A stretch of DNA of 61,546 nucleotides from Actinomycetes bacterium (GTDB lineage Bacteria > Actinomycetota > Acidimicrobiia > Acidimicrobiales > JAJYXR01). Of the stretch, positions 14,691 through 56,473 are shown in pieces (the first letter of the stretch is position 1; each line of letters opens with the position of its first letter). The position numbers and the translations under genes are program-made. The stretch covers positions 1 through 61,546 of the forward strand of contig JAJYXW010000040.1 in NCBI GenBank assembly GCA_021801525.1. The letters run 5' to 3'. The notes under the pieces are model-generated. The model saw only the letters and a list, made by a program, of their open reading frames with translations, made no database searches and was not told the origin of the DNA.

Positions 14691-15871
14691 CTCACACCAC
14701 CGGCAGCCACACCACCGGCAGCCACACCACCGGCGCGCGCGGTGGTGACAGTAGGAAGGTCGTGCTCGCCAACCCTTGGCTGCCCCCCGATGTCCGCCGG
14801 GGAAGCGAGGTAGTCATGTCCGAGCTCGCCGGCTGGCTGAGCAGGCATGGCTGGGAACCGGAGCTACTCGGCGGGGCCTTGCCCCAGGCCCGCTCCCGCC
14901 CCGCGTCGCGCCCGCGCGGAGAAGATCCGATCGAGGGGGTTGCGTCACGGCGTGTCAAGGCTCCCATCGAGCGAAGCTGGCCCGGAGGGCTCGATCGCGA
15001 CGCATCGCTTGTGCCGGTCATGGCGCGAGAGATGCGGCGTGTACGGCCAGCGGTAGTCCACTCTTTCCACTACACGGACGCCGCTGCCGCTCGCCTCGCC
15101 CGCCTGCCCTACATCGCCACCTGCGAGGGCATACCCCTCCGCTGCTCGTTCTCGGGCAAGCCTCTGCACAGGGCCCTGCTCGCCATGGGCTGGTCGGGCG
15201 CAGCCATCCTGGTCAGCCCGAGCCGGGCAGTTGCCGACCACTTGCGGATCACGTTCGCCCTGGCTTCCGAGGTCGTCCCCAACGGGATCGACATCTCGCG
15301 CTACGAAGGTCTCAGCGAGCAGCGCATCCCTGGGATGATCGTCTGCGCGGCGGCACCCGAGGACCGCCGCAAGCGAGCCGAGGTTCTCGTCGACGCGTTC
15401 GGCATCCTCGGGACGCGCATGCCAGAGGCTCAGCTCGTCTTCGTGGCAGGCCCGGTGAGCAAAGTGCGCGAGGAAGCGCTGCTCGCGCGGCTCGATGCAC
15501 GCCGGCGTGAGCGCGTCCGCTTCCTCGGCCAAGTGGAGCGTGCCGAGCTCCTACGCTGGTACGCGCGCGCCTCGGCGACGTGCCTGCCCAGCGTGAACGA
15601 GGCGTTCGGCATGGTGCTCGTCGAGTCCATGGCGGCGGGCACCCCTGTCGTCGGCGCCCGTCACGGAGCCATCCCCGAGATCGTGACGGACTCGACCGGC
15701 GCGACCTTCGCGCCCGACGACCCGTCCTCGTGCGCGAGAGCTCTGGAGGAGGTCCTCTCGTGGGACGACGAGCGCTGCGTCGCCGAAGCCTGCCGTGCCC
15801 GCGCTGCCTGCTACGACTGGTCCTGCGTAGGCCGGCTCGTCGCCGAGCTCTACACCCGTGCTGCCCCATGA
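14687..15871 (+). CDS. glycosyltransferase, GT4 family
   Basis: ATGA overlap with the preceding GT4 gene. LPSVNEAFGMVLVESMAAGTPVVGARHGAIPEIV. Confidence 0.85.
   Translation: MTHTTGSHTTGSHTTGARGGDSRKVVLANPWLPPDVRRGSEVVMSELAGWLSRHGWEPELLGGALPQARSRPASRPRGEDPIEGVASRRVKAPIERSWPGGLDRDASLVPVMAREMRRVRPAVVHSFHYTDAAAARLARLPYIATCEGIPLRCSFSGKPLHRALLAMGWSGAAILVSPSRAVADHLRITFALASEVVPNGIDISRYEGLSEQRIPGMIVCAAAPEDRRKRAEVLVDAFGILGTRMPEAQLVFVAGPVSKVREEALLARLDARRRERVRFLGQVERAELLRWYARASATCLPSVNEAFGMVLVESMAAGTPVVGARHGAIPEIVTDSTGATFAPDDPSSCARALEEVLSWDDERCVAEACRARAACYDWSCVGRLVAELYTRAAP
14693..14735. repeat. 15-bp tandem repeat, about 2.9 copies (CACACCACCGGCAGC), in frame at codons 3-16 of the GT4 gene
   Basis: Encodes HTTGSHTTGSHTTGA directly after the ATGA junction. 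Confidence 0.9.
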
Positions 15872-15940
15872 GACTGGGCTGCCCATGAGACTGGGCTGCC
15901 CATGAGACTGGGCTGCCCATGAGACTGGGCTGCCCATGAC
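15860..15940 (+). repeat. 17-bp tandem repeat, about 4.7 copies (GCTGCCCATGAGACTGG), forming four ATGA-linked 6-codon mini-ORFs between the GT4 gene and the flippase gene
   Basis: ATGs at 15868, 15885, 15902, 15919 and 15936. Each ATG AGA CTG GGC TGC CCA TGA ends on the A of the next ATGA. The first ATGA contains the GT4 stop and the last ATG is the flippase start. Confidence 0.95.
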
Positions 15941-26907: not shown

Positions 26908-26979
26908 GACTGTGCTCAGGGCGTCTCTACAGACTTTGCTCAGGGCGTCTCCAAAGACTGTGCTCAGGGCGTTTCCACG
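26908..26979. repeat. 24-bp tandem repeat, 3 copies (GACTGTGCTCAGGGCGTCTCTACA-like), at a convergent gene junction
   Basis: Starts 1 nt after the regulator stop. The last copy overlaps the 3' end of the rfbG-like gene. Confidence 0.9.
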
Positions 26980-30018: not shown

Positions 30019-31257
30019 TCAGCCGAGAACGGCCTCCCAGCGCGGACGGAGGGCTTCTGGCGCGAAGCAGGCCTCGTAGCGCCGGCGAGCGGCGGCACGC
30101 AGTCGCTCGAGATCGCCGCGGTCGGCTGCCAGCCCCCGCAACACCTCTCCGAGCGCTCCGGCGTCTCCCGGCTCCACGAGAAGCGCGGCATCGCCCGTGA
30201 TCTCCTTCACCGTTCCGATCGTCGAGCCGACTATGGCGACGCCTGCCCGCATCGCTTCGATGAACGTCACACCGAGCGTCTCGTATCGTGCGGGCATCAC
30301 GAGCACGTCAGCTCCGGCAAGGAGGGTGGCCACACTGCGGGGGGGCATGCTCGGGTGCCAAACCACTCGCGGAGAGAACGCGCCGACCGGTTCATGGCCG
30401 ACCACGTGGAGCACCATCCCCTCGACTGCCTCTACTGCCTGGAGCACCTCGGGCAGGCCCTTCAGCCAGCCCCACGAGCCCACGTGCACTGCCACCAGCG
30501 AGGCGCCGCTCTTCCGAGTCGCCTCGCCCCCCCCTGGGAATCTCAGCTTCGCAGGTGGCTCGCCTTCAGGGTCGGCAAGGTCGAGGATCGGCGGGATGAC
30601 CACGACCTTCCCGCTGTCCACGCCCGCCCGCAGCAGGTTGTCAGCGCCATAGTCGCTCCAGCAGACGACGAGGTCCGCTCGTCGGGCAAGGTCACACTGG
30701 AGTCTCGTGTGCAAGTCGCGGACGCGCTCGGCCTCGCCGCCCTGTCGCCAGTTCCAGATCTCGGGAATGACCCCGTTCGTGCTCCAGACAACCGGGGGAC
30801 GCGATGGCCAGGTGAGCACTCCGCGCAGGTGGCTGTAGACGACGTCTACCTCGCGCTTCGCCCATATCGGATCGACGTGCGCAAGTGCCCGCGCATGCCG
30901 CCCTGCACGCGAGCCGATAGACCTACCAAGCTGCACGGGATCGGCCCAGGTCGCACGTGCCCGGCTCGCTGTTGCCCGGCTCGCTGTTGCCCGGCTCGCT
31001 GTTGCCCGGCTCGCTGTTGCCCGGCTCGCATCACGTGGCTCTGGCGTCTTTCGAGCTGCGAGGTCTCGAGCACTTCGCAGAGCCCGGATCACTACCTCGT
31101 CGGCGTGTGGCACCAGCCTTGCCGTGAGCAGACGCGCCTCTAGGTTCTCCCATCGTGTCCACGCCATCGCTCCATGGACTGCGACGTCCCAGGCCACCGG
31201 GCCCACCCGTGCTCGCTCGACCTCGCGTGCGGTCGCGTTCAGGAGAACCTGGCGCAC
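30019..31257 (-). CDS. glycosyltransferase, GT4-like, with an in-frame repeat insertion
   Basis: C-terminal ..VLVMPARYETLGVTFIEAMRAGVAIVGSTIGTVKEI..LLVEPGD. Confidence 0.75.
   Translation of the reverse strand: MRQVLLNATAREVERARVGPVAWDVAVHGAMAWTRWENLEARLLTARLVPHADEVVIRALRSARDLAARKTPEPRDASRATASRATASRATASRATASRARATWADPVQLGRSIGSRAGRHARALAHVDPIWAKREVDVVYSHLRGVLTWPSRPPVVWSTNGVIPEIWNWRQGGEAERVRDLHTRLQCDLARRADLVVCWSDYGADNLLRAGVDSGKVVVIPPILDLADPEGEPPAKLRFPGGGEATRKSGASLVAVHVGSWGWLKGLPEVLQAVEAVEGMVLHVVGHEPVGAFSPRVVWHPSMPPRSVATLLAGADVLVMPARYETLGVTFIEAMRAGVAIVGSTIGTVKEITGDAALLVEPGDAGALGEVLRGLAADRGDLERLRAAARRRYEACFAPEALRPRWEAVLG
30961..31029. repeat. 15-bp tandem repeat, about 4.6 copies (CCGGCTCGCTGTTGC), in frame in the GT4 gene
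   Basis: Encodes (SRATA) about 4 times near residue 80. Confidence 0.9.
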
Positions 31258-36405: not shown

Positions 36406-36666
36406 CTACCGGTCATAGACCTCGCGGCGATTTCCAAGAGCCACGACCACGATCAAGAGCACGTCATCGGCAATGGTGTAGATGATGCGGTAGTCGCCTA
36501 CGCGCACCCGGTAACCAGGGCGGCCTCGCAGAGGTCGGGACGCTGGCGGCCTCGGGTCGTCGGCAAGTAACCCGATTACGCCTTGGATACGGGGACGAAC
36601 TACCGGGTCCAGTTCCCGCAGTGCCCGGGCCGCAGCGGGACGCAACTCAATGCGGTAGGTCGTCAC
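36406..36666 (-). CDS. RelE/ParE-family toxin
   Basis: ..RPLRGRPGYRVRVGDYRIIYTIADDVLLIVVVALGNRREVY. GTGA overlap with the upstream antitoxin gene. Confidence 0.85.
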   Translation of the reverse strand: MTTYRIELRPAAARALRELDPVVRPRIQGVIGLLADDPRPPASRPLRGRPGYRVRVGDYRIIYTIADDVLLIVVVALGNRREVYDR

Positions 36667-36911
36667 TTCCAGCCGAGATCGGCCTTCACCTCATCCCAGG
36701 GAATACTGGGACCTTCCTCTGCCATCGCTGCGTCGAAAGCCTGGGCGTCTTCGGCATCCTCGAGCGCCTCGATCAACTCCTCATACCGTTCGGGGCTGAC
36801 CAGCACCGCTGCAGGCCGGCCATAGCGCTCCAGGAACACCGCTTCGGTGTGGGCCGTCTCCACCGCCTCGGAGAGTCGTTCCCGAGCTTCGCTCACTGCC
36901 ATCTTTGCCAT
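36663..36911 (-). CDS. Phd/YefM-family antitoxin
   Basis: ..VSEARERLSEAVETA..EAVFLERYGRPAAVLVSPERYEEL.. Confidence 0.85.
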   Translation of the reverse strand: MAKMAVSEARERLSEAVETAHTEAVFLERYGRPAAVLVSPERYEELIEALEDAEDAQAFDAAMAEEGPSIPWDEVKADLGWK

Positions 36912-36918
36912 GCACTCT

Positions 36919-36947
36919 ATTGTACAAGAGCTCTATGGAGTTGTACA
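36919..36947 (-). promoter_or_regulatory. putative leaderless promoter/operator of the phd-relE module
   Basis: Minus strand: TGTACA-N15-TGTACAAT. The -10-like TACAAT ends 7 nt before the ATG (36911). The two TGTACA palindromes are spaced 21 bp apart. Confidence 0.45.
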
Positions 36948-36995
36948 GATCGCCGGCAAGAATCGTACTGGCGGTTCGCGCACCGGTCCGATGAT

Positions 36996-37049
36996 GGTGC
37001 GAACCTGTAGGTCACGGAGTCGGTGGGCCGTAGGCGCTCGTATTCGAAC
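36996..37049 (+). repeat. degenerate copy (R0) of the inter-cassette repeat, tentative
   Basis: GGTGC..AGGTC..GTGGGC..GCGCT CGTATTCGAAC has the same block order as R2/R3 and the tRNA junction, but is much diverged. Confidence 0.3.
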
Positions 37050-37199
37050 TTCGATGACATGCACCTTCGCGTGACTCGACTTCACTCAGCGGCGTACCTC
37101 CGTTCGTAGGGACGGATGGCCGGCAATGCTTTCTGCGGGGCGGCGGCGAAGCGGGCTGTGTCGCCCCTCTTGACAAACCTGGCTCGTACTGCCATTGTG

Positions 37200-37484
37200 A
37201 TGCCAATGACTACGACGAAGGAAGACCGGCTCCAGATCCGGGTGGAGCCCAAGGCCAAGCGCCTCCTCGAGGAGGCGGCAGCCGCCAGCCACCTGACCGT
37301 CTCGGCATTCGTCCTTCAAGCAGCTGGAATGAGAGCCGACCAGGTGCTCTTGGACCGCGAGACGATCCGACTGAGCCCGCGAGCAGCGGCCACCTTCGCC
37401 AGCGCTCTCGCGGAGCCCGCAACGGTGAATGAACGCCTGGCCAAGGCATTGACTCGACCCCGCGGCTTCACTTGGGCCGATTAA
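37200..37484 (+). CDS. DUF1778 (TacA-like, RHH) antitoxin
   Basis: ..RLQIRVEPKAKRLLEEAAAASHLTVSAFVLQAA.. Confidence 0.8.
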   Translation: MPMTTTKEDRLQIRVEPKAKRLLEEAAAASHLTVSAFVLQAAGMRADQVLLDRETIRLSPRAAATFASALAEPATVNERLAKALTRPRGFTWAD

Positions 37485-37996
37485 AGCTCTGCCGCCCCGA
37501 GCTCCTCGACGTCGATCGGCACGATCGAGGAAGCTTCGCGTCCACCGACGGGGCCATGAACGAGTGGCTGCGCCGGTACGCGAGGCAGAGCCGGCGAGAC
37601 GACACGGCGGCTACCTGGATCATCGCCACGCCCGAGGGTCGGATCGCGGCGTTTGCCTCACTGAGCATGACGGGCATCGACCGGTCCGAAGCCCCTGCGA
37701 GTCTTGGGAAGGGATCACCCAATCCGGTTCCGGGACTGCTCATTGGGCGGTTGGCGGTCGACCAGGACTTCGAGGGCCGGGGCGTCGGAACCGCCCTCGT
37801 GCAGCATGCCCTGGCCTTGGCCGTCGGGCTGAACATCTCTGCCGCCTGCAAGGCAGTCGTTGTCGTGGCGCTCAATGCCGAGGCCAAGGCTTGGTGGCTA
37901 CGTCTCGGCTTTCACTGCTTCGATGAAGAGGACGACGACTGCTTCGACCTATTCCTCCTGACGGCCGAAATCGAAGAGACGTTCGGTGCAACGTGA
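37472..37996 (+). CDS. GNAT-family acetyltransferase toxin (TacT-like)
   Basis: 13-nt overlap with the DUF1778 gene. ..LIGRLAVDQDFEGRGVGTALVQHAL.. acetyl-CoA-binding motif. Confidence 0.8.
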   Translation: MGRLKLCRPELLDVDRHDRGSFASTDGAMNEWLRRYARQSRRDDTAATWIIATPEGRIAAFASLSMTGIDRSEAPASLGKGSPNPVPGLLIGRLAVDQDFEGRGVGTALVQHALALAVGLNISAACKAVVVVALNAEAKAWWLRLGFHCFDEEDDDCFDLFLLTAEIEETFGAT

Positions 37997-38018
37997 GAGC
38001 GGTGTGGTTGTGGCGGGC

Positions 38019-38053
38019 GGGTTCTGGTGGACCTTGGGTCACACAATACGAGC
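38019..38053 (+). repeat. inter-cassette repeat R1 (core TGGGTCACACAATACGAGC at 38035-38053)
   Basis: The core is shared with R2 and R3. A looser shared tail extends to about 38100. Confidence 0.7.
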
Positions 38054-38144
38054 CGCTCCCCGATCATCGAGGGTCCGGTCGTCGGCCTCGAGCCGGCGGT
38101 CGGTACGCACGCCGCTCACTCGCGAGGTCCAACCTTCACCATAA

Positions 38145-38166
38145 GTAGCACTACTCATGCTACAAT
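38145..38166 (+). promoter_or_regulatory. putative leaderless promoter/operator of phd-vapC module 1
   Basis: Palindrome GTAGCA-N7-TGCTAC overlaps TACAAT (38161-38166), 6 nt before the ATG at 38173. Confidence 0.45.
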
Positions 38167-38172
38167 CACTCC

Positions 38173-38451
38173 ATGACGAGGATCGGCGTACGAGAGTTGC
38201 GCCAGCACGCGAGCCGTTACCTTGAGCAGGTGAAGGCCGGGGAAGTCGTCGAGGTCACCGAGCGGGGAACACTCGTCGCCCTGCTGGTGTCCCCCACTCC
38301 GGCCGTGGCCGAGCGGGACCGCCTAATTGCGTCCGGTCGGCTCGTGCCGGCGAAGAGCGCATTCCGCCTGCCAGAGCGCCGTCATGCCGCCCGTGGAGAG
38401 CAGACCGCGTCTGAAGTCCTAGCTGAGCTCCGCCGGGACCGAATTGCGTGA
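38173..38451 (+). CDS. Phd/YefM-family antitoxin
   Basis: MTRIGVRELRQHASRYLEQVKAGEVVEVTERGTLVALLVSP. Confidence 0.8.
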   Translation: MTRIGVRELRQHASRYLEQVKAGEVVEVTERGTLVALLVSPTPAVAERDRLIASGRLVPAKSAFRLPERRHAARGEQTASEVLAELRRDRIA

Positions 38452-38840
38452 TCTACTTCGACACGTCCGCGCTCGTGAAACTGGTGTTCGAAGAGGCCGA
38501 GAGCTCCGCCTTGGCGGCGTGGCTGACCGAGAGAGCAGACGTTCCCAAAATCAGTAGCGACCTGTCGATGGTTGAACTGCTCCGTACGTGCCGGCGAATC
38601 GACGAGGAGGCGGTCAGGGACGCAGCGCTGCTTCTTGGGGGGATCGACCTTCTTCCCATCGATCGTCCCATCGTCGAACGGGCTGCAACCCTCTTCCCGC
38701 ACGAGCTCCGGATCCTTGACGCGATCCACCTGGCAAGTGCGTTGTCGGTGAGGGCGGATCTGACCACCTTTGTCGTCTACGACAGCCGACTCCGCTCGGC
38801 CGCGACGGAAGCAGGCATCGACGTGGAGTCGCCCGCCTGA
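38448..38840 (+). CDS. vapC: PIN-domain toxin VapC
   Basis: GTGA overlap. IYFDTSALVKL.. plus downstream acidic residues (..DAIHLASAL..). Confidence 0.85.
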   Translation: MIYFDTSALVKLVFEEAESSALAAWLTERADVPKISSDLSMVELLRTCRRIDEEAVRDAALLLGGIDLLPIDRPIVERAATLFPHELRILDAIHLASALSVRADLTTFVVYDSRLRSAATEAGIDVESPA

Positions 38841-38964
38841 TCCGGCTCCTGGCCGGCGAACCACGCCTGTTCCATGGAACTCGGCGGGAACGACCGACGC
38901 ACCACGCTCAGAACCTTCCGTCGAACCGGATCTGGCCCACGCGAATGACGACTGGGTGGCAACA

Positions 38965-39012
38965 GGTTCGTGCAGGTCGAATTTGTGGGCGCTGGTTCAC
39001 ACAATACGAACC
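38965..39012 (+). repeat. inter-cassette repeat R2
   Basis: GTGCAGGTC (38970-38978), GTGGGCGCTG (38985-38994), GGTTCACACAATACGAACC (38994-39012). The tail extends to about 39052. Confidence 0.8.
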
Positions 39013-39113
39013 TCTCTCCGGTGGTTGCCGGATCGCTCATCGACCTTGGCTAAGGGCATCATTTGCCGTAGAACAGCTACACGGTATTGCGGAATGCCTG
39101 CTATGCTGCGTCC

Positions 39114-39401
39114 ATGGCAGACGATCAGACGTTCGTCACTGTGCAAGGCCGGGGTCTCATCGCCATCCCGACCGCCATCCGGCGCCACTTCGGTTTGGAC
39201 CAGCCCGGAGCGCAGCTCGAGGTCATCGAGCGAGAAGGAGAGATCGTGCTGCGCCCACACGTTGCAGTGCCAGCCGACCAGGCGTGGTTCTGGACCGAGC
39301 GCTGGCAGCAGATGGAACGCGAGGCTGACGACGCCATCGCCGCAGGGCAAATCATGACCGTCGAAGGTCTCGAGGAGCTCTTGGCCGACCTCGACTCGTG
39401 A
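39114..39401 (+). CDS. AbrB/MazE/SpoVT-type antitoxin
   Basis: MADDQTFVTVQGRGLIAIPTAIRRHFGL..GAQLEVIEREGEIVLRP. Confidence 0.7.
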   Translation: MADDQTFVTVQGRGLIAIPTAIRRHFGLDQPGAQLEVIEREGEIVLRPHVAVPADQAWFWTERWQQMEREADDAIAAGQIMTVEGLEELLADLDS

Positions 39402-39724
39402 GGTTCGAGCGGACCGAACCATTCAAGGCTGACTACCAGCGACTGTCCGAGGACGAACGCGAGAAGTTCCGCACCGCGGCCCGTGCCTTCAACGCGGCCT
39501 GTGATCACTTCGTCGAGACCAAGGACCCGTCGTCATGGCCAGGCAACCTGCGGGTCAAGGCGGTCGCGAGCGCTCCGGGTATCTTCGAAATGACTTGGAA
39601 CTTCAGCGGGCCTGACGGCCGAGCCACCTGGGAGTGGGTCACGGTCATCGACACTGATGGACGCCATTGGCCGGCGGTGCGCTGGCGCAGACTGGGAGCT
39701 CACCGGATCTTTCGCGAACCATGA
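39398..39724 (+). CDS. putative RelE/ParE-superfamily toxin
   Basis: GTGA overlap with the AbrB-like gene. ..GNLRVKAVASAPGIFEMTWNFSGPDGRATWEW.. resembles RelE-fold toxins. The family assignment is tentative. Confidence 0.5.
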   Translation: MRFERTEPFKADYQRLSEDEREKFRTAARAFNAACDHFVETKDPSSWPGNLRVKAVASAPGIFEMTWNFSGPDGRATWEWVTVIDTDGRHWPAVRWRRLGAHRIFREP

Positions 39725-39835
39725 CCGCCCCAGCCACTCGTCGTGACCTCGATGGCGTTCCGCGAACGCAGACTCACCCCGGTGCCCTCCGGTTCGTATG
39801 GCGTGAACCATGCTCCGCGTTGTTGCTGCTCAGGG

Positions 39836-39879
39836 GTGCCAGTCTACGTGTGTGGGCGCTGGGTCACACAATACGAACT
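39836..39879 (+). repeat. inter-cassette repeat R3
   Basis: GTGCCAGTC (39836-39844), GTGGGCGCTG (39852-39861), GGGTCACACAATACGAACT (39861-39879). The tail extends to about 39918. An inverted imperfect copy of the core lies at 39791-39809. Confidence 0.8.
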
Positions 39880-39965
39880 GTGCCCCCACGATCGCCGGCC
39901 CCAACATCGACCTCGGCTGACAGGGCGACGGGGGCGTTCGATCAGTCTGAGGCCACCCAGAGACT

Positions 39966-39996
39966 CGTAGCTGATCGTAGCTCTGTATGCTACAGT
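39966..39996 (+). promoter_or_regulatory. putative leaderless promoter/operator of phd-vapC module 2
   Basis: CGTAGCT occurs twice (39966, 39976). The GTAGC-N7-GCTAC palindrome overlaps TACAGT (39991-39996), 6 nt before the ATG at 40003. The layout parallels 38145-38166. Confidence 0.45.
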
Positions 39997-40002
39997 CATC
40001 TC

Positions 40003-40251
40003 ATGACAAAGACCATCGCGCAGCGTGAGCTGCGGAACGACAACGCCAAGGTGATCGAGGCCGTCGCCGCTGGCGAGAGCTTCGTCGTCACTCGCAATGG
40101 CGTGCCCGTGGCAGAACTACGTCCGATCCAGCAGACGCGCCGGACCTTTGTGCCTACGGCTGAGCTTCTGGTGCTCGCCGCCACCGGGCCACGGGTCGAC
40201 CGAAAACGATTCAGAGCGGATCTCGACCGGGTCGTCGACCAAGGCCTGTAG
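40003..40251 (+). CDS. Phd/YefM-family antitoxin
   Basis: MTKTIAQRELRNDNAKVIEAVAAGESFVVTRNGVPVAELRP. Confidence 0.8.
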   Translation: MTKTIAQRELRNDNAKVIEAVAAGESFVVTRNGVPVAELRPIQQTRRTFVPTAELLVLAATGPRVDRKRFRADLDRVVDQGL

Positions 40252-40647
40252 ATGCCAACGGGCCTACTCGACACCTCGGTTGTCATTGACTGGGACGATC
40301 CGACGGTTGCTGCTGCCCTTCCAGAAGAGGTCGCTGTGTGTGCGATCACCCTCGCCGAGCTGGCTGCTGGGCCACACCTCGCTACCTCCAGTTCCGAGGG
40401 CGCACGCCGTCAGGCTCGTCTCCAACAGGTAGAGGCGGCCTTCGAGCCACTTCCCTTCGATGCCACCGCGGCTCGGAGCTACGGACAGATCGTGGCCGCC
40501 GTCGCAGAGACGGGTCGGTCACATCGACGGCGCGTTGCCGGCCTGCTCATCGCCGCCACCGCGCACGCCAACGGCTTGGCGCTCTACACCCGAAATCCCG
40601 ACGACTTCGCCGGGCTTAGCGATCTCGTCCACGTCGTCGGCATCTGA
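40252..40647 (+). CDS. vapC: PIN-domain toxin VapC
   Basis: The start codon immediately follows the antitoxin TAG. LLDTSVVID..; ..LLIAATAHANGLALYTRNPDDF. Confidence 0.85.
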   Translation: MPTGLLDTSVVIDWDDPTVAAALPEEVAVCAITLAELAAGPHLATSSSEGARRQARLQQVEAAFEPLPFDATAARSYGQIVAAVAETGRSHRRRVAGLLIAATAHANGLALYTRNPDDFAGLSDLVHVVGI

Positions 40648-40735
40648 CCGCCGAACGGTCACCCCTCTGGTGGAGGAGTACGCGGTTCGCGCAGCGTTCC
40701 GATCACCGACGCGAAGGTGCAGGTCAGGATCCTCG

Positions 40736-40809
40736 TGGGCGCTGCCGGACTCGAACCGACGGCCTGCTGGTTGTAAGCCAGCTGCTCTGACCAACTGAGC
40801 TAAGCGCCC
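40736..40809 (-). tRNA. tRNA-Val (anticodon TAC)
   Basis: Manual cloverleaf: GGGCGCT-TA-GCTC-AGTTGGTCA-GAGC-A-GCTGG-CTTACAA-CCAGC-AGGCC-GTCGG-TTCGAGT-CCGGC-AGCGCCC-A. 74 nt. CCA is not encoded. Confidence 0.9.
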
Positions 40810-40956
40810 GATCTGTGGCTCCTTCTCGGCTGACCATCTTTGCACCAGGTGGCCCCGCGCACCCACGAGCTAGCCTGAGAGAGCCCCGAGAGTCGCGCGC
40901 ACACGCCTGAGCCGGGCAGCTTTCGCCACGCACCCTCCTTCCGCTAGACCAGCACC

Positions 40957-43155: not shown

Positions 43156-43181
43156 CAGCACTGTTGGGCAGATCACCCTGG

Positions 43182-43226
43182 CTCCTACCACCAACGGCTC
43201 CTGCCACCAACGGCTCCTGCCAGCCA
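43182..43226. repeat. 16-bp tandem repeat, about 2.8 copies (CTCCT(A/G)CCACCAACGG), in a convergent intergenic region
   Basis: Read directly between the stop at 43155 and the dapE stop at 43270. Confidence 0.85.
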
Positions 43227-43269
43227 TCCTGGCTGCAACCTAGGAGCATCTGCGGATCTGCCTGGGTGG

Positions 43270-44346
43270 TTATGCGGAGATCAGCGCCGCCAGCACCCCG
43301 CGGGCCTCGGCGAGCTCCGCTTCGCTCACGTGCTCGTCCGGAGAATGCGCAAGCGAAGGGTCGCCAGGCCCGAAGTTGGCTGCTGGCACGCCTGCGGCGA
43401 AGAACGTCGCCACGTCAGTCCAACCGACCTTGGCCTCAGGAGGGCGACCGGTGGCCCCGACGAGCTTCGCTATCAGCGGGTGGCGGAGAAAGGGCGGCGC
43501 GCCAGGCGCGATGTCCAGGACCTCCACTCTGTCGCCGATTACTTCGTCGAGCACAGGGGAAAGCAGGCGGCGCAACTCGGCTTCGGCCTCAGCTTCGGAG
43601 CGGTCCGGCGCGAAGCGATAGTTCAGGGTGAGCTCTGCCTCTCCGGGCACGACGTTACCTGCCACTCCCCCCTCGACGCGCACTGCCTGGAGCTGATCGG
43701 CATACTCGCAGCCGTCGAGCTCCACCCTGCGTGAGTCGTAGGACCCGAGCAGCGCGAGCAGGGGGGCCATGCGGTGGATGGCGTTCGTGCCCATCCAAGG
43801 GCGTGCAGTGTGCGCCGGACGCCCGCTGAGCCTCACGCGAGCACGCATTGTGCCCTGGCACCCGGCCTGCACGACTCCGCCTGTCGGCTCACAGAGCACG
43901 GCTGCGTCCGCGGCGATCACCTCGGGGCTCTCCACGGCGATGCGGCCGAGAGCGTTCTCGGAATGGTCGATCTCCTCGCAGGCGTAGAACACGTAGGTGA
44001 GGTCCACGACCGGCTCCTCAACAGTGCGCGCCAGGTCCAAGAGGACCGCTATGCCACCCTTCATGTCGACCGAGCCCACGCCCCAGAGTGTGCCCTCCTC
44101 CACTCGTGCGCGCTCGTTGCCGGCGGGACGCACGGTGTCCATATGGCCGGCCAAACAGACTCTCTCAGCACGGCCGAGCCCCGTCCGTGCCACCACTGAG
44201 TCACCCACTCTCAGCACGTCCAGATGTGAGCACGAGCGCAGGTCCGCCTCGAGGATCCCGGCCAGCCGGCCCTCCTTCCGGCTCTGCGAGGGGATGTCCA
44301 CGAGGGCAGCCGCCAAGTCGAACAGGTCATCGGGCAGCTCCTTCAC
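43270..44346 (-). CDS. dapE: succinyl-diaminopimelate desuccinylase (M20 peptidase)
   Basis: ..LVDIPSQSRKEG..LAGHMDTV..GSVDMKGG..; actinobacterial DapE layout; GTG start. Confidence 0.85.
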   Translation of the reverse strand: MKELPDDLFDLAAALVDIPSQSRKEGRLAGILEADLRSCSHLDVLRVGDSVVARTGLGRAERVCLAGHMDTVRPAGNERARVEEGTLWGVGSVDMKGGIAVLLDLARTVEEPVVDLTYVFYACEEIDHSENALGRIAVESPEVIAADAAVLCEPTGGVVQAGCQGTMRARVRLSGRPAHTARPWMGTNAIHRMAPLLALLGSYDSRRVELDGCEYADQLQAVRVEGGVAGNVVPGEAELTLNYRFAPDRSEAEAEAELRRLLSPVLDEVIGDRVEVLDIAPGAPPFLRHPLIAKLVGATGRPPEAKVGWTDVATFFAAGVPAANFGPGDPSLAHSPDEHVSEAELAEARGVLAALISA

Positions 44347-44408
44347 GACCGGCGCGCCTTCACGAGCTGTGCGCCTTCACGAGCAGTGCTTCTTCACGGG
44401 ACGTGATC
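44341..44408 (-). repeat. 17-bp tandem repeat, 4 copies, forming three GTGA-linked 6-codon mini-ORFs that end on the dapE start codon
   Basis: Minus-strand GTGs at 44397, 44380, 44363 and 44346. The mini-ORFs are GTG AAG AAG CAC TGC TCG TGA, GTG AAG GCG CAC AGC TCG TGA and GTG AAG GCG CGC CGG TCG TGA. Each TGA overlaps the next GTG, and the last GTG is the dapE start. Confidence 0.95.
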
Positions 44409-44458
44409 CCTGACGAACAGTGCTCGAGTCCAGATGATCTCTTGAGCACGGGAGGCGC

Positions 44459-45340
44459 CTACGTGGCTACGCCGTGGTCGCGAAGCAGCGACTCGAGCTG
44501 TGTCTTGTCGTGGCGCTCGCCTTCTTCGAGGTACCTCAAGACGAGAACGCACGGGAGGAAGAACTCCCCTCCTGGCAAGACACGGCGTCGGGAGGCGCTC
44601 ACCGCAACACACCACGGCGGGACCTCGCCTCGGGCAAGCTCATCACCGGTCTCGGCGTCGATGACGGGAATGGACGGGTTCAAGATGGTGCCCGCCCCGA
44701 GCACGGCCCCCTCTCCCACCCGGGCACCGTCGGTCACCATGCATCGGCTCCCGATGAAGGCGTCGTCACCCACCACGACCGGCTTGGCCCCAGGGGGCTC
44801 GAGCACACCACCGATACCTACACCGCCCGACAGGTGAACGCGCTCGCCGATCTGCGCGCAACTCGCTACCGTCGCCCAGGTGTCGACCATGCTGCCGGCG
44901 CCGACTCGGGCGCCGATGTTCACGTAGCTAGGCATGAGCACCACCCCCGGCCCCAGATAGGAGCCCCAGCGTGCGGAGGCACCGGGCACCACCCTCACAC
45001 CTGCGCGTGCGAAGCCTCTCTTCAGCGGGAGCTTGTCGGCATACTCGAAAGGACCTACCTCGGTCGTTGCGATCTCCTTCAGGCGGAACAGGAGCAATAT
45101 CGCGTACTTGAGCCACAGGTTCACCTTCACCGTGCCGCTTCCCGACACCCCGCCGCCACCAGGCATCGCGTCGCCACCGTGCGCCCCGGCGTCTACGGGC
45201 TCCACGTACGCGACACGCGCCTCTCCTGCGTCAAGGAGCTCGATGGCCTCGGTCACGCTCCCGAGCGCGTCCTCGTCGCCGGGCCGGAGCTCGCCTGCCC
45301 GCTCCCACAACTCCTCTATCCTCTCCTGCAAGCCGGGCAT
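44459..45340 (-). CDS. dapD: 2,3,4,5-tetrahydropyridine-2,6-dicarboxylate N-succinyltransferase
   Basis: Hexapeptide-repeat C-terminal half (..IGARVGAGSMVDTWATV..GVGIGGVLEP..VGDDAFIGSRC..). The N-terminal domain is typical of actinobacterial DapD. Confidence 0.85.
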   Translation of the reverse strand: MPGLQERIEELWERAGELRPGDEDALGSVTEAIELLDAGEARVAYVEPVDAGAHGGDAMPGGGGVSGSGTVKVNLWLKYAILLLFRLKEIATTEVGPFEYADKLPLKRGFARAGVRVVPGASARWGSYLGPGVVLMPSYVNIGARVGAGSMVDTWATVASCAQIGERVHLSGGVGIGGVLEPPGAKPVVVGDDAFIGSRCMVTDGARVGEGAVLGAGTILNPSIPVIDAETGDELARGEVPPWCVAVSASRRRVLPGGEFFLPCVLVLRYLEEGERHDKTQLESLLRDHGVAT

Positions 45341-45364: not shown

Positions 45365-46615
45365 TCAGCGCTTGCCGGGTCCCAGGGTCCCTACTGCCTC
45401 GAGGCGCCTGCAGGCTTCCTCGATGCGCTCGTCTGGCTGGACCGCGGCCACCCGCACGTACTTCGACCCTGCTTCACCATAGAAGTCGCCCGGGCTCACG
45501 AGGATGCCTGCTGCTTCGGCGAGCGCTTCGGCAAGCACCCATGCGGGCATGGAACCAGCGCTATCGCGTGCCCATTCGGGAGCCTCGACCCACAGGTAGA
45601 ACCCCCCGTCGGGCAGCCCGCAGGCGACCCCCGCGGATCCGAGAGCCCCGGCGAGCCGTTCCAGACGATGCCGGTAGCGCCCGCGCTGCTCGGCGACGTG
45701 ACGGTCGTCCACTAGTGCGTGTACTCCCGCGAGCTGGGCCGGGCCCGGGACCATCAGGCCGGCGTGCTTTCGCACCTCCGACAGGTAGCCGACCAGCTCG
45801 GCGTCCCCGGCATAGAACCCCACCCGTACGCCTGCGAGATTGGAGCGCTTGGAGAGTGAATGGACGGCAAGCAGCCCCTCCAGGCCGTGCTGGAGGATGC
45901 TCTCGGGTGGCCTGGCCCAGGTGAGCTCCACGTAACACTCGTCCGAGAACACCGGTACGCCGTTCTCCCGACCCCAAGCTGCAGCCGCTCCGAGGTCGGT
46001 GAGCCTACCCGTAGGGTTGGCGGGGCTGTTCACCCATAGGACCAGCGCCCGCCCGGCATCATCGGGGTCGATCGCACCGAGGTCTACACCGCCCCCAGGG
46101 GCCTCGGGCACCCCGACCGAACGGCAACCGGCGAGCGTCGCGCTCATGGCGTAGGTCGGGTACGAGAGTGCCGGATGGAGCACGGTGTCGCGGCCCGGCG
46201 AACGCAGCCTGAGGTACCAGGCGCTCGAGGCCACCATCTCCTTGGTGCCTATGCAGGCGGCGATGGAATCTGCCGGGAGCTCGACCCCGAATCGCCTCGA
46301 CATCCAAGACAGCGCCGCCTGGCGAAGCTGCAGGCTGCCGGCCGACGGCGGGTAGCCACGCTCTGCCCCCGATGATCCAAGAGCCGCCAGCACGTCCGGC
46401 GGAGGAGGATCGCATGGATTTCCCACCGACAGGTCGATCAGGCCAGCGCCACCCGCGTGCAGGATCCGGGCGCGCTCTGCAAGTGCCGCTAGGCGGTCGT
46501 AGGGATACGGCGGCGGGACGAACCCGGGCGCGACACCTGCCGGGCACCCTGGTCCAGCACCATTCACAGGACCGCTCGCGGGAGCATTTACGGGATCACT
46601 CGCTAGACCACTCAC
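45365..46615 (-). CDS. dapC: succinyldiaminopimelate aminotransferase (class I/II aminotransferase)
   Basis: ..SVGNPCDPPP..; PLP-lysine motif SLSKRSNLAGVRVGF. GTGA overlap with the hflX stop. Confidence 0.75.
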   Translation of the reverse strand: MSGLASDPVNAPASGPVNGAGPGCPAGVAPGFVPPPYPYDRLAALAERARILHAGGAGLIDLSVGNPCDPPPPDVLAALGSSGAERGYPPSAGSLQLRQAALSWMSRRFGVELPADSIAACIGTKEMVASSAWYLRLRSPGRDTVLHPALSYPTYAMSATLAGCRSVGVPEAPGGGVDLGAIDPDDAGRALVLWVNSPANPTGRLTDLGAAAAWGRENGVPVFSDECYVELTWARPPESILQHGLEGLLAVHSLSKRSNLAGVRVGFYAGDAELVGYLSEVRKHAGLMVPGPAQLAGVHALVDDRHVAEQRGRYRHRLERLAGALGSAGVACGLPDGGFYLWVEAPEWARDSAGSMPAWVLAEALAEAAGILVSPGDFYGEAGSKYVRVAAVQPDERIEEACRRLEAVGTLGPGKR

Positions 46616-47874
46616 GGGAGCGCGAACTCCGCGAAACGGCCGGCGGCTGCGTCGTCTAGCACCACGTCCACCATCGTCGCACCTTCGGACATGGCAGTGC
46701 CTATGACCTCTCCTTCCCGGTGCAATGCGGCAAGGACGTCACCGCGGCCGAAGGGAACCACCAGGCGCATCACCTTGTCAGACCGCCGCAGCCGAGCCGC
46801 GAGGGCCGCCACGAGCTCCTCTGCCCCCTCGCCGGTCGCCGCCGAGACGACGACCGATCCGTCCTCAGCGCGTGCCAGGCGCGACGCCGATACGCGGTCC
46901 CGATCGGACTTGTTCACCACGAGGATCTCCGGCACTTCCCCGGCCCCGATCTCCGCCAGGACGATGCGAACAGCCCCCATGCGCTCGGCAGCATCTTCCG
47001 CGCTGCCGTCCACTACGTGGAGCAGCAGGTCCGCGTCACGCACGACGTCGAGCGTCGACTTGAACGCCTCCACCAGCTGGTGAGGCAGCTTGCGCACGAA
47101 CCCGACCGTGTCGGAGAGGAGCACTGTCTCCCCCCCGGGCATCGCAAGGCGCCTTGTCCTCGGGTCGAGAGTCGAGAACAGTCGGTCCTCCACTAGCACC
47201 CCTGCGCCCGTGAGCATGTTCAGCAGCGTGGACTTGCCGGCGTTGGTGTACCCGACGAGCGAGACTGACCTCTGGCGCGAGCGCCTCCTCGCGCGGGCCT
47301 GTGTCTGGCGGGTGCGCCCGACATCGCGCAGCTCACGTTCCAGGCGGGCGACACGCTCGAGCAGTCTCCGACGGTCCACCTCGAGCCGGGTCTCGCCCGG
47401 GCCCCGCGTGCCGATCCCACCCGCCTGCTGGCTGAAGCTCGCTCCCCTGCCGCGCAGCCTGGGCAGCCGGTAGCGGAGCAGGGCCAGTTCGACCTGTGCC
47501 TTTCCCTCCTCGGAGCGGGCGTTCTGGGCGAATATGTCCAGGATCACGGCGGTCCGGTCGATAGCCGTTCTACCCAGTATCTTCTCGAGGTTGCGCTGCT
47601 GGGCAGGGCTCAGCTCGTCGTCGAACACGACCGTGTCCGCGTCCTCGCTCTCGGATCGCTCACGCAGCTCCTCCACCTTGCCCCGGCCGACGAAGGTAGC
47701 GGGGTCGGGCCGGTCGCGCCTCTGCACGACGCGGTCCACCACGTCGGCCCCGGCAGTGTCGACAAGCAGGGCCAGCTCGTCGAGCCCCCGTTCGACCTCG
47801 TCGAGGGAGCTCCAGGGGAAGGCTACGCCCACGAGGACTATGCGCTCCCTGAAGCGCCTCTCGATGAGAGTCAC
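46612..47874 (-). CDS. hflX: GTPase HflX
   Basis: ..DELSPAQQRNLEKILG..DRTAVILDIFAQNA..LRYRLPRL..; G1 motif GYTNAGKST. The GTG at 47874 forms a GTGA with the dapF stop. A start further upstream through the GHEAH(R/G) repeat cannot be excluded. Confidence 0.8.
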   Translation of the reverse strand: MTLIERRFRERIVLVGVAFPWSSLDEVERGLDELALLVDTAGADVVDRVVQRRDRPDPATFVGRGKVEELRERSESEDADTVVFDDELSPAQQRNLEKILGRTAIDRTAVILDIFAQNARSEEGKAQVELALLRYRLPRLRGRGASFSQQAGGIGTRGPGETRLEVDRRRLLERVARLERELRDVGRTRQTQARARRRSRQRSVSLVGYTNAGKSTLLNMLTGAGVLVEDRLFSTLDPRTRRLAMPGGETVLLSDTVGFVRKLPHQLVEAFKSTLDVVRDADLLLHVVDGSAEDAAERMGAVRIVLAEIGAGEVPEILVVNKSDRDRVSASRLARAEDGSVVVSAATGEGAEELVAALAARLRRSDKVMRLVVPFGRGDVLAALHREGEVIGTAMSEGATMVDVVLDDAAAGRFAEFALP

Positions 47875-49016
47875 CGGCTGCCTCCCGTGCGCCTCATGTC
47901 CCCTGTGCGCCTCGTGTCCCCCGTGCGCCTCATGTCCCCTGTGCGCCTCGTGTCCCCCGTGTGAAGCTCTCCTTGCAGGCTCTGGTCCCTGAGTGCGTCG
48001 GCTGGGGGCAGCTCTGCCAGGATCTCGCCTACTCGCACGCTCGGACCCCCGAGGCGCGCCCGGTATGCGGGGCTTACTTCCGGGCCGCTCCCCTGCCCGC
48101 CAACCTCGCCAGGCTCCAGGTGGACCTCCAGGACGCCACCGGGGTTTCGCACCCGCACGTCGCTCGCGCACATACCTGCGTCGTGCACGACCGCGACGGC
48201 AGCGCAGGTGCCTGTGCCGCAGGCAAGAGTCGCGCCGGCACCGCGCTCCCACACGACGAGCTCCAGGTCGCCGCACTCCAGAGGCGAGCCGGCGCTTACA
48301 GCAGGCCACACGAGCTCGAGATTGGTCCCACCCGGCAGGCACTTTTCTATGGCCGGACCGTGGGCATAGAGAACATCTGCGTCGGGTCGGGAGGCGAGCA
48401 CTACCACGAGGTGAGGGTTTCCGACGCTCGCCAACCGGGCCATCAGGAACGGTACGGCATCGGGGAGGATGGCCTCTCCCACCCGCGGCCAGCGATCGTC
48501 CGAGGCGTCCCATGTCCCCCCGAGCGACACCTCGCCCATGTCCACGCTGGCGAAGCCACTCGCCCTCCCCGTAACCCGGTAATCCACGAGGCGCAGACCT
48601 GCCGCTGTCGACACTCCAATGCTCCCCGGTTCGACAATCCCCACATCGACCGCCGCCTGGACGAGGCAGCGGATCCCATTCCCGCTCATCTCCGCCACCG
48701 AGCCGTCCGCGTTGCGAAGCTCCATGCAAAGTGCAGCGCCGCCAACCGCTGCACGCGACCGAGCACTCGCGCGCGACAGCGCAGTGGCCGGCGACCCAGC
48801 GCTCGCGCGCGCTCCCACGGCAGCTCCCCCCGGGCTGACCCTCATCACGCCGTCGGCCCCGATGCCGTGGTGGCGGTCACAGAGCCAGCGCACCTCGTCC
48901 GGGTCGAGGGCATGGTCCCCAGTCATGTCGACGATGACGAGGAAGTCATTGCCTGCTCCTTGGTACTTGGTCAGGCGGAGCGTGCCGGAGGGTTGGGTTG
49001 GTGGGCTTTCGCTCAC
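47871..49016 (-). CDS. dapF: diaminopimelate epimerase
   Basis: LRLTKYQGAGNDFLVI..; ..SGNGIRC..; ..ACGTGTCA... GTG 49016 forms a GTGA with the miaA stop. The C-terminal ~45 aa tail runs through the 18-bp repeat. Confidence 0.8.
   Translation of the reverse strand: MSESPPTQPSGTLRLTKYQGAGNDFLVIVDMTGDHALDPDEVRWLCDRHHGIGADGVMRVSPGGAAVGARASAGSPATALSRASARSRAAVGGAALCMELRNADGSVAEMSGNGIRCLVQAAVDVGIVEPGSIGVSTAAGLRLVDYRVTGRASGFASVDMGEVSLGGTWDASDDRWPRVGEAILPDAVPFLMARLASVGNPHLVVVLASRPDADVLYAHGPAIEKCLPGGTNLELVWPAVSAGSPLECGDLELVVWERGAGATLACGTGTCAAVAVVHDAGMCASDVRVRNPGGVLEVHLEPGEVGGQGSGPEVSPAYRARLGGPSVRVGEILAELPPADALRDQSLQGELHTGDTRRTGDMRRTGDTRRTGDMRRTGGSR
47887..47958. repeat. 18-bp tandem repeat, 4 copies (GTGCGCCTC(A/G)TGTCCCC(T/C)), at the dapF/hflX junction
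   Basis: Translates as TGD(T/M)RR in the dapF frame and GHEAH(R/G) in the hflX frame. Confidence 0.9.
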
Positions 49017-50014
49017 CGGGCTCCCCCCGCAGGCACGGCCCGGACCGGCTGCGCGTCCGCGGACGCGTCGTAGGCCTGGAGGAGCTGCGCCAGCAGATCG
49101 CCACTCGGGTCGAGCCAGGTGATCCGGGGATCGCGCCTGAACCACGCCCATTGGCGGCGGGCGAATGCTTTCGTCCGGCGCTTGGCCTCGGCGATCGCGC
49201 GCTCTAAGGCAGCCTTGCTCCCTTCGCCTCCCTCGACGTAAGCGAGCAGCTCCCTGTATCCGAGCGCCTGGCGGGCGGTTCGTGAGAGCCCACCGGGCCT
49301 CCTCGCCAGCGCCCTCACTTCGTCCAGCAGGCCGAGATCCATCATGGCGTCGAAACGTTCGTCGATGAGCCTCCCGTGGAGCTCCGGGTCGAAGCGGATG
49401 CCGACCATGTGCACCTTCGTCACGGGGAACGAGCCGAGCCCGGGGCCATAGGAGGAGAAGGGCCTGCCCGAACCGATCGTCACCTCGAGGGCCCTCACCA
49501 GGCGCCTGCGATTGCCTGGCTCCATCCTCGCGGCCGCGATCGGGTCCAGGCGCTGCAGGCGGGCGTAGAGCTCGGCAAGACCGCCTCGACGATCGGCCTC
49601 CGACTCCAGTGATGCCGCGACGACCGGGTAGCGACCCGGCAGCTCCAGGCAGTCCACGACCGCCCTCAGGTAGAGACCCGTTCCCCCCACGAGGAGCGCC
49701 TTGTGCCCCCGGTCCTCGATTGCTGCGAGCGCCGCGCTCGCCCACGCCTGGAAGTCCCGGACCGACACCTCCTCGTCAGGATCGACCATGTCGACGAGAT
49801 GCATCCTCACCTCGCCGAGCTCCCCGGCAGCCGGTTTCGCAGTCCCGATGTCCATACCCCGGTATAGAGCCATCGAGTCCACCGAGACGAGCTCGATCTC
49901 GGGACGGGGCCGAGCGCGGCACAGCGCCAGCGAGAGCGATGTCTTGCCCGAAGCGGTCGGTCCCACGAGAGCGAAGGGGTCCACGGCCTGGCAGCTACCT
50001 CCACGCGGCAGCAA
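49013..50014 (-). CDS. miaA: tRNA dimethylallyltransferase
   Basis: ..LVGPTASGKTSLSLAL..VSVDSMALYRGMDIGTAKP.. Confidence 0.9.
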   Translation of the reverse strand: MLPRGGSCQAVDPFALVGPTASGKTSLSLALCRARPRPEIELVSVDSMALYRGMDIGTAKPAAGELGEVRMHLVDMVDPDEEVSVRDFQAWASAALAAIEDRGHKALLVGGTGLYLRAVVDCLELPGRYPVVAASLESEADRRGGLAELYARLQRLDPIAAARMEPGNRRRLVRALEVTIGSGRPFSSYGPGLGSFPVTKVHMVGIRFDPELHGRLIDERFDAMMDLGLLDEVRALARRPGGLSRTARQALGYRELLAYVEGGEGSKAALERAIAEAKRRTKAFARRQWAWFRRDPRITWLDPSGDLLAQLLQAYDASADAQPVRAVPAGGAR

Positions 50015-56421: not shown

Positions 56422-56473
56422 AGGCCAGGCGGATAGGCCAGGCGGATAGGCCCACCGGACAGGCAAGCCTGCC
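56422..56473. repeat. 13-bp tandem repeat, about 3-4 copies (AGGCCAGGCGGAT; later copies degenerate)
   Basis: Read directly in the intergenic region before the merR-like gene. Confidence 0.8.

Follow-up and report, generated by a model that had tools for sequence, protein, structure and literature searches.

A 17-bp tandem array at the dapE start of an uncultured Acidimicrobiales lineage: probably a locus-specific minisatellite with a tolerated start/stop relay

In the 61.5-kb window (the whole stretch of 61,546 nucleotides that we analysed), dapE is preceded by head-to-tail copies of a 17-bp unit, a length within the 10-100 bp range of variable-number tandem repeats (VNTRs). Each intact copy forms a tiny open reading frame whose stop codon overlaps the next start codon, so that a relay of starts and stops leads up to dapE. 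We think it probable that the array is a locus-specific minisatellite (VNTR) and that the relay is a tolerated by-product rather than a designed device. As a repeat, the array is far beyond chance; as a pattern of starts and stops in register, it is not. The features discussed are collected in Table 1.

Table 1. Coordinates of the dapE array, its surroundings and the second 17-bp array of the window.
Feature	Position	Strand	Remarks
dapE, succinyl-diaminopimelate desuccinylase, 358 aa	43270..44346	minus	TIGR01900 match, 5e-130
dapD-dapE spacer, 112 nt	44347..44458	minus	85 nt = five 17-nt units; no TA dinucleotide
Unit 3, GTGAAGGCGCGCCGGTC	44347..44363	minus	opens mini-ORF 3, 44343-44363, MKARRS*; its TGA overlaps dapE GTG
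Unit 2, GTGAAGGCGCACAGCTC	44364..44380	minus	GTG 44380 overlaps mini-ORF 1 TGA; opens mini-ORF 2, 44360-44380, MKAHSS*
Unit 1, GTGAAGAAGCACTGCTC	44381..44397	minus	GTG 44397 opens mini-ORF 1, 44377-44397, MKKHCS*
Two decayed units, GGACTCGAGCACTGTTC + GTCAGGGATCACGTCCC	44398..44431	minus	exact 17-nt register; without GTG/TGA
dapD, tetrahydrodipicolinate N-succinyltransferase	44459..45340	minus	PRK11830 match, 1e-83
Sister 17-bp array, GCTGCCCATGAGACTGG x4.6	15860..15939	plus	spans glycosyltransferase TGA and ATG (15936) of Polysacc_synt gene

On the minus strand, GTG codons are read at 44397, 44380, 44363 and 44346, the last being the dapE start. They open three mini-ORFs of six codons each (GTG AAG AAG CAC TGC TCG TGA, GTG AAG GCG CAC AGC TCG TGA and GTG AAG GCG CGC CGG TCG TGA), and the TGA of each overlaps the following GTG by 4 nt as GTGA. 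These GTGA junctions, at 44380, 44363 and 44346, lie on the dapC-dapD-dapE strand. Directly after unit 3 comes GTGAAGGAGCTG, the beginning of dapE, and the first ~7-10 nt of the gene (GTGAAGGAGC) make up a last, partial copy of the repeat. TRF reports the array at 44340-44398 with a period of 17, 3.5 copies, 85% matches and a score of 76, and the units have diverged from each other at 5-7 of their 17 positions. All of the GTG positions, mini-ORF sequences and TGA/GTG overlaps given in an earlier, sequence-only reading of this DNA hold on the sequence. The further degenerate unit that it placed toward dapD is also real and larger than described, comprising two decayed in-register units, each with an 11/17 match to the three intact ones (P~0.014 each). 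Since these copies carry no GTG or TGA, the relay covers the three proximal units only. Subtracting all five units from the spacer leaves 27 nt.

Downstream of the dapD stop codon (TAG, 44459-44461), dapE starts after 112 nt; dapC is upstream of dapD, and the gene calls of the same operon show 4-nt overlaps at miaA-dapF, dapF-hflX and hflX-dapC. The -10 consensus of actinobacterial promoters is TANNNT, and a search of the dapD-dapE spacer for such a box returned none, as the spacer is without a TA dinucleotide; neither a sigma-70-like promoter nor an intrinsic terminator or terminator-like hairpin was predicted there. Because the spacer holds no -10-like box or terminator-like site, dapE is probably co-transcribed with dapD, which would put the array inside a dapC-dapD-dapE mRNA. 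The dapE start is called at the same site in all strain-level contigs examined, and the N-terminus is colinear with that of homologues.

The nearest species-representative genome shares only 63% DapE identity with the window, and public assemblies contain a 90% protein cluster with 14 DapE variants. Our strain-level set consists of the window and 24 recovered contigs (25 sequences), the contigs coming from few projects and not representing independent strains. The spacer of the window recurs identically in 20 contigs, and three units are present in 24 of the 25 sequences, the copy number being nearly fixed. In the remaining sequence, L040, the spacer measures 95 nt, exactly one 17-nt period having gone, and the unit that now comes first joins the 5' part of unit 1 to the 3' part of unit 2; neither the relay nor the dapE frame is disturbed by the loss. 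This exact, chimeric -17 allele is the signature of slippage or unequal exchange, proves the periodicity and, as a whole-unit copy-number difference between strains, makes the array a genuine but slow VNTR. An exact-pattern scan of metagenome contigs for further alleles of the dapE array gave 0 matches. Every three-unit allele still has its three GTGA junctions, including the divergent lineage of L027 and L028 (DapE 93% identical), which differs from the window by 6 substitutions in the 51 array nt, all nonsynonymous in the mini-ORF frames, and by 5 differences in the other 61 spacer positions. A unit 2 variant, GTGAGGAAGCACAGCTC, is present in L024 and in L027/L028. Intra-array gene conversion in L024 was considered and rejected, as its unit 2 is identical to that of the L027 lineage; this is a case of allele sharing or of recombination between lineages.

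A syntenic relative (L030-L033; 68% identity, gene order hflX-dapC-dapD-dapE-kelch) has no array and a spacer of 20 nt as called, and the single-copy TGAAGGCCTGCCGGTG of L030 aligns gap-free and colinearly to unit 3 plus the dapE start. This single-copy homologue in an array-less spacer indicates that the unit arose by duplication of part of the dapE start region of the ancestor, and that its amplification dates from after the split from the L030-L033 lineage and before that of L027. At the dapE 5' ends of L001 and L004 we found arrays unrelated to this one, of 12 bp x6.8 and 15 bp x3.2, which form the in-frame N-terminal extensions (VAGP)n and (DPPVS)n. No such extension turned up when 133 DapE homologues were scanned crudely, L001 and L004 being the only cases, and the idea that N-terminal repeats are a general DapE feature was rejected on this result. 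Comparison of dapD-dapE junctions in relatives, as the sequence-only reading had advised, speaks for a slippage origin (L040, L030) and against a shared architecture, since L001 and L004 carry unrelated in-frame arrays with periods of 12 and 15. The slippage-driven junction amplification that it had proposed is supported, as slippage or unequal exchange, by the L040 allele, the L030 single-copy homologue and the polymorphism of the array at 15860.

That sister array stands at the end of a glycosyltransferase gene (14687-15871) and is built around an ATGA gene junction. Its similarity to the dapE unit (0.53) is at background level, and the description of the two arrays as having the same geometry and unrelated sequences is confirmed in the window. 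In strains L044 and L045 it has one unit fewer, the second unit is 18 nt long and the relay is changed. Both of the window's multi-copy period-17 arrays end on a gene start, a recurrence that had been taken to argue for a general mechanism rather than coincidence. This step is unsupported. The distance from a start to the next stop equals the period plus one, and since 18 is divisible by 3, any 17-nt unit containing NTGA is forced into the six-codon, 4-nt-overlap geometry; where the unit includes a start codon, the sole extra requirement is an A at +4, which 11 of the 22 called genes have. On a given strand, NTGA ([AGT]TGA) occurs in 9.7% of the 17-mers of the window and 9.3% would form a relay if repeated; ~96% of the NTGA-containing 17-mers give a relay in this way, and with either strand counted the share is ~20% of all 17-mers. 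The suggested check on how often random 17-bp arrays would keep start and stop in register thus ends with the relay being expected, and a comparison with 16- and 18-bp arrays is uninformative, since those periods cannot by construction yield a relay at all. Our census covered 295 kb (the window and related loci, with 12 distant loci from a protein-based metagenome scan) and 72 arrays; of the 11 independent arrays with a period of 2 mod 3, 4 form a relay on either strand versus ~2.6 expected (P~0.25). For the window only, the figure was 2 of 5 (P=0.08 strand-specific, 0.26 either strand). From the arithmetic, the frequency of A at +4 and this census count, the shared geometry reflects many arrays plus arithmetic, with no dedicated mechanism, and the L001 and L004 arrays differ from it.

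Short arrays are abundant in this DNA, with 19 non-overlapping arrays scoring at least 50 in the window versus 0-3 in 20 dinucleotide shuffles. Short arrays at gene boundaries are ~30-fold enriched in the window, and they occur at all kinds of boundary, including divergent and co-directional spacers, convergent spacers (3' ends) and protein termini. The period is divisible by 3 in 13 of the 19 window arrays (P=0.002) and in 55 of the 72 census arrays (76%), an excess that indicates the footprint of a tolerance filter, with arrays persisting where the frame is unbroken. An interspersed family or shared motif was rejected: a search for the dapE unit elsewhere in the 61.5-kb window with 3 mismatches allowed gave only two chance-level 3-mismatch matches, both coding, and k-mer enrichment across 17 strong window arrays revealed no shared motif beyond the null. 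No relevant publication came up in a literature search on tandem repeats in Acidimicrobiia. More remarkable than the dapE relay is how rich in short boundary arrays this lineage is as a whole.

Under the minisatellite explanation, replication slippage or unequal exchange would have made tandem copies of 17 nt from the translation-start region of the ancestral dapE, which consisted of TGAAGG, a 10-nt spacer and then GTG. An ancestral dapD-dapE spacer of ~20-27 nt would have grown to 112 nt in five rounds of duplication; the two distal copies have decayed, and GTGA still stands in the three proximal ones. With a start codon in the unit, an A next to it and 17+1 being a multiple of 3, each copy automatically becomes a six-codon ORF whose UGA overlaps the next GUG. 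A ribosome starting at an upstream GUG would then terminate exactly on the next start and either reinitiate, as at natural NTGA overlaps, or leave. On this most economical reading, the relay is what renders a frame-shifting start-codon duplication harmless: since such ribosomes would stop on the next start, dapE expression would hardly suffer and the duplication could persist; one that carried ribosomes past the dapE start in another frame would presumably be removed. Weighing against the by-product view are the presence of GTGA in all alleles, the near-fixed copy number and the fact that both period-17 arrays of the window end on a gene start. The near-fixed copy number has to be read with the degeneracy of the array, which itself lowers the slippage rate.

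Alternatively, the relay may be a selected rheostat, in which the upstream GUGs serve as extra ribosome entry sites that hand ribosomes on at GUGA and the number of units tunes DapE heritably, by attenuation or boost; we consider this unlikely. The geometry does permit termination-reinitiation, NTGA overlaps couple translation in bacteria (PMC6728339, PMC12548453), the array very probably lies inside the operon mRNA, GTGA is found in all alleles, unit number does vary, as L040 illustrates, and the length of VNTR3239 correlates with fpg1 expression in M. tuberculosis (PMC2734929). Were unit number to tune translation, the array would be a simple natural model for setting expression in heritable, graded steps. 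Against this, the pattern is what arithmetic and chance lead one to expect, relatives manage with a 20-nt spacer or in-frame arrays, and nothing obvious calls for heritable tuning of dapE, a housekeeping gene. Evidence of selection on the relay was sought in substitutions, Shine-Dalgarno (SD) pairing, RNA structure and GTGA columns, and none was found. With an anti-SD sequence that was assumed rather than read from this genome, duplex energies upstream of the four GUGs are -1.5 to -4.7 kcal/mol, no better than at random GTGs of the window (mean -3.8), and the suggestion that GAAGG of each unit acts as the SD for the next GTG was dropped on these values. Called starts in the genome are weak in SD generally (median -2.8). 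SD motifs often matter for reinitiation in E. coli. No variable column falls inside GTGA, with 7 of 17 columns variable (P~0.09), and the column tests overall are not significant (P 0.09-0.2); the retention of GTGA may be a weak hint of constraint. The hexapeptides are not conserved, as each of the 6 substitutions that separate L027 from the window alters them, and apart from the AAG that comes from dapE codon 2 the mini-ORFs contain no Lys/DAP-related codon runs. RNA around the array folds with no excess stability over shuffles (z=0.27), and an Rfam scan of 43900-44900 (E<=10) returned only two chance miRNA matches. A known RNA element or attenuator was rejected on these two results and the negative promoter and terminator scans. 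Looking for the marks of a leader-peptide attenuator or regulatory uORF, we found no conserved peptide, no alternative RNA structures and no known riboswitch or leader family.

Also unlikely is the proposition that this lineage makes short (10-26 bp) boundary duplications at an unusually high rate and that those at start junctions with periods of 2 mod 3 survive as heritable, copy-number-tunable ribosome relays built of overlapping mini-ORFs. If true, relays would set the translation of dapE and of the polysaccharide flippase-like gene at 15936, and would constitute a miniature, locally generated counterpart of the mycobacterial MIRUs and a general, evolvable expression knob. We give little credence to a role at the level of DNA or transcript, in which the repeat would be a reiterated regulator site or spacer length would affect transcript level or stability, a proposal also made for VNTR3239. 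Repeat length correlates with fpg1 mRNA in M. tuberculosis (PMC2734929), and unit 3 contains the palindrome GGCGCGCC, but the units differ from one another at 5-7 of their 17 positions and share no motif with other window arrays, the spacer shows neither a promoter-like site nor excess structure (z=0.27), and the array is absent from the sister lineage. It is very improbable that the mini-ORFs encode functional hexapeptides, or that dapE starts further upstream with the array as coding sequence. The five dapE-frame codons before GTG 44346 read EGAPV, comparable to EGLPV in the annotated L030 N-terminus, and the L001 and L004 arrays are read in frame; on the other side, the 17-nt period shifts the frame at each unit, a TGA stands in the dapE frame at 44377-44379 with no start codon from there to 44346, all 6 between-lineage substitutions alter the peptides, and the LVDIPS motif is preceded by 10 residues in most homologues and by 14 in the window DapE. 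An assembly or sequencing artefact is scarcely credible, for although short-read metagenome assemblies may collapse or break at repeats (the L021 contig being a nearby case), the same 112-nt spacer occurs in 20 other contigs from NCBI, ENA, JGI and Logan, a diverged version of the same length is found in another lineage, and the array, at 51-85 nt, is shorter than a read.

Among known systems, the MIRUs of Supply et al. (1997), as summarised in PMC12548453, PMC4473831 and PMC3184786, are intergenic operon repeats that carry small ORFs; these overlap the ORFs on either side with their ends and are coupled at -4 nt. The arrangement is described as "facilitating insertion with minimal impact" (PMC12548453), and the accepted view is that it allows a repeat to occupy a start codon while hardly affecting expression. 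With units of 40-100 bp (PMC3184786, PMC2734929), MIRUs form a sequence family dispersed at ~40 loci and possibly mobile. Like a MIRU, the dapE array is actinobacterial, intergenic within an operon, oriented with the flanking genes, variable in copy number and joined to the downstream start through an NTGA overlap of -4 nt. Unlike a MIRU, it has a unit of 17 nt (6 codons), occurs at a single locus in the 61.5-kb window and is demonstrably derived from the local start region, and there is no overlap between its first mini-ORF and the dapD stop. The array works like a MIRU but, by unit size and the lack of a dispersed family, is not one. The nearest structural analogue appears to be VNTR3239 (ETR-F) in the rnc-fpg1 spacer of M. 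tuberculosis, which ends at the fpg1 start codon and whose repeat length was correlated with the fpg1 mRNA level (PMC2734929). By the same source, relatives have 1-20 bp at that place, similar to the 20-nt spacer of the array-less L030, and in both cases the downstream gene is near-invariant between strains. At 279-358 bp, the region in M. tuberculosis exceeds the dapE spacer in length and is also more complex; the text consulted describes no start/stop relay for it, and the expression correlation was measured there.

Termination-reinitiation coupling at NTGA is well documented (PMC6728339, PMC10666635, PMC12548453). The dapE array has the identical 4-nt stop/start overlap, read from the sequence, and its co-transcription is likely; however, coupled pairs of that kind join real genes, and the relay joins six-codon ORFs with unconserved products and weak SD. 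The array also shares with phase-variable contingency loci a slippage-prone repeat at the 5' end of a gene and a copy number that can change heritably. Contingency repeats are typically 1-9 nt long and lie in surface or restriction-modification genes, which they switch on and off at high frequency through the reading frame or the spacing of the promoter. At dapE, a housekeeping gene, a one-unit change in contrast keeps relay and frame, and only 1 of 25 sequences differs; frequent on/off unit switching is not seen.

The array provides an example of a start-region duplication that automatically creates a start/stop relay and is tolerated only in certain period classes, and it extends the mycobacterial MIRU/VNTR description to an uncultured Acidimicrobiales lineage. 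Its practical value is modest. It calls for caution in gene calling, both for start sites and for N- and C-terminal repeat extensions. Together with its neighbours, especially the perfect 18-bp dapF and 17-bp 15860 arrays, it provides markers that can be used directly to type strains of this population. Polymorphism is high in the perfect arrays, and the degenerate ones are stable; the perfect 18-bp array at the dapF 3' end takes the states 0, -18 and -36 among 10 contigs, and at a neighbouring 16-bp array the L021 contig ends inside the repeat.

Short tandem arrays are abundant across the window, with 19 arrays scoring 50 or more compared with 0-3 in dinucleotide shuffles, an enrichment of about 30-fold. 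The periods of these short arrays range from 9 to 26 bp, with a significant excess of those divisible by 3, and nearly all of the arrays are found at gene boundaries. No motif common to the window's short arrays was found.

Tandem arrays and neighboring features (window coordinates unless another contig is named)
Feature	Position	Strand
Example short arrays	7305-7360, 18589-18652, 26907-26977, 30958-31029, 56422-56452	
15-bp in-frame array, (HTTGS)x2.8, from codon 3 of GT4 glycosyltransferase	14687-14734	+
17-bp x4.6 array spanning glycosyltransferase stop and Polysacc_synt ATG	15860-15939	+
tRNA beside variable stretch	40736-40809	-
16-bp x2.7 array in convergent spacer 3' of dapE	array 43180-43222; spacer 43156-43269	
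Out-of-frame 39-codon ORF inside dapE	44211..44330, start 44330	-
dapF	about 47871-49016	-
18-bp perfect in-frame array, DAP epimerase C-terminal tail	47884-47961	-
12-bp x6.8 perfect array, extreme dapE 5' end	L001 2870-2951	
15-bp x3.2 perfect array, extreme dapE 5' end	L004 1943-1990	

The array across the glycosyltransferase stop and the start codon of the Polysacc_synt (flippase-like) gene, which encodes an 882-aa product, differs in the strain-level contigs L044 and L045, where the second unit is 18 nt and the total is one unit fewer. As a target of repeat-mediated expression variation, this surface-polysaccharide gene is more plausible than dapE. The nearby (HTTGS)x2.8 array lies directly 3' of an ATGA overlap joining the GT4 gene to the preceding glycosyltransferase gene.

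Within the dapE operon, 4-nt stop/start overlaps chain miaA, dapF, hflX, and dapC (gene calls on the related contig L034, corresponding to window ~45365-49984), and the dapC-dapD spacer is 24 nt by the same calls. At 112 nt, the dapD-dapE spacer is the operon's outlier. The dapF array, which sits 13 nt upstream of the dapF stop and right before the overlapping hflX start, is highly polymorphic: across the 10 strain contigs compared, its length differs by 0, -18, or -36 nt, which yields a DapF of 381, 375, or 369 aa, respectively. Arrays at the dapE 5' end are also present in L001 and L004, contigs from distant Acidimicrobiia relatives, where they encode in-frame N-terminal extensions, (VAGP)7 and (DPPVS)3, respectively; in L004, the array falls precisely at the junction of codons 2 and 3 of the typical MTDLLAL N-terminus.

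The out-of-frame ORF inside dapE opens at the ATG of GAAGGAG-N7-ATG, the sole strong SD-plus-start of the region, with a duplex energy of -8.4 kcal/mol versus -3.9 for the dapE GTG. It is conserved in strain-level relatives and not conserved in L030, a syntenic 68% relative. This motif is probably a by-product of Lys-Glu codons, and the predicted start could compete for ribosomes.

The spacer 3' of dapE also varies. The strain-level contig L021 terminates within its 16-bp array and carries at least one extra copy, and L027 and L028 (the lineage with 93% DapE identity) lack the entire ~115-nt spacer, such that the dapE stop adjoins the convergent kelch-repeat gene. The stretch past this gene (~36600-40810) differs between strains, containing, depending on the contig, PIN/PhdYeFM and TacA/GNAT toxin-antitoxin pairs, a phage-type integrase, IS110 and IS21 elements, or a Fic protein, and the adjacent tRNA is likely an integration hotspot. 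TANNNT-like boxes are present immediately 5' of the starts of several toxin-antitoxin genes in this island, which suggests that these genes may be expressed from leaderless mRNAs.
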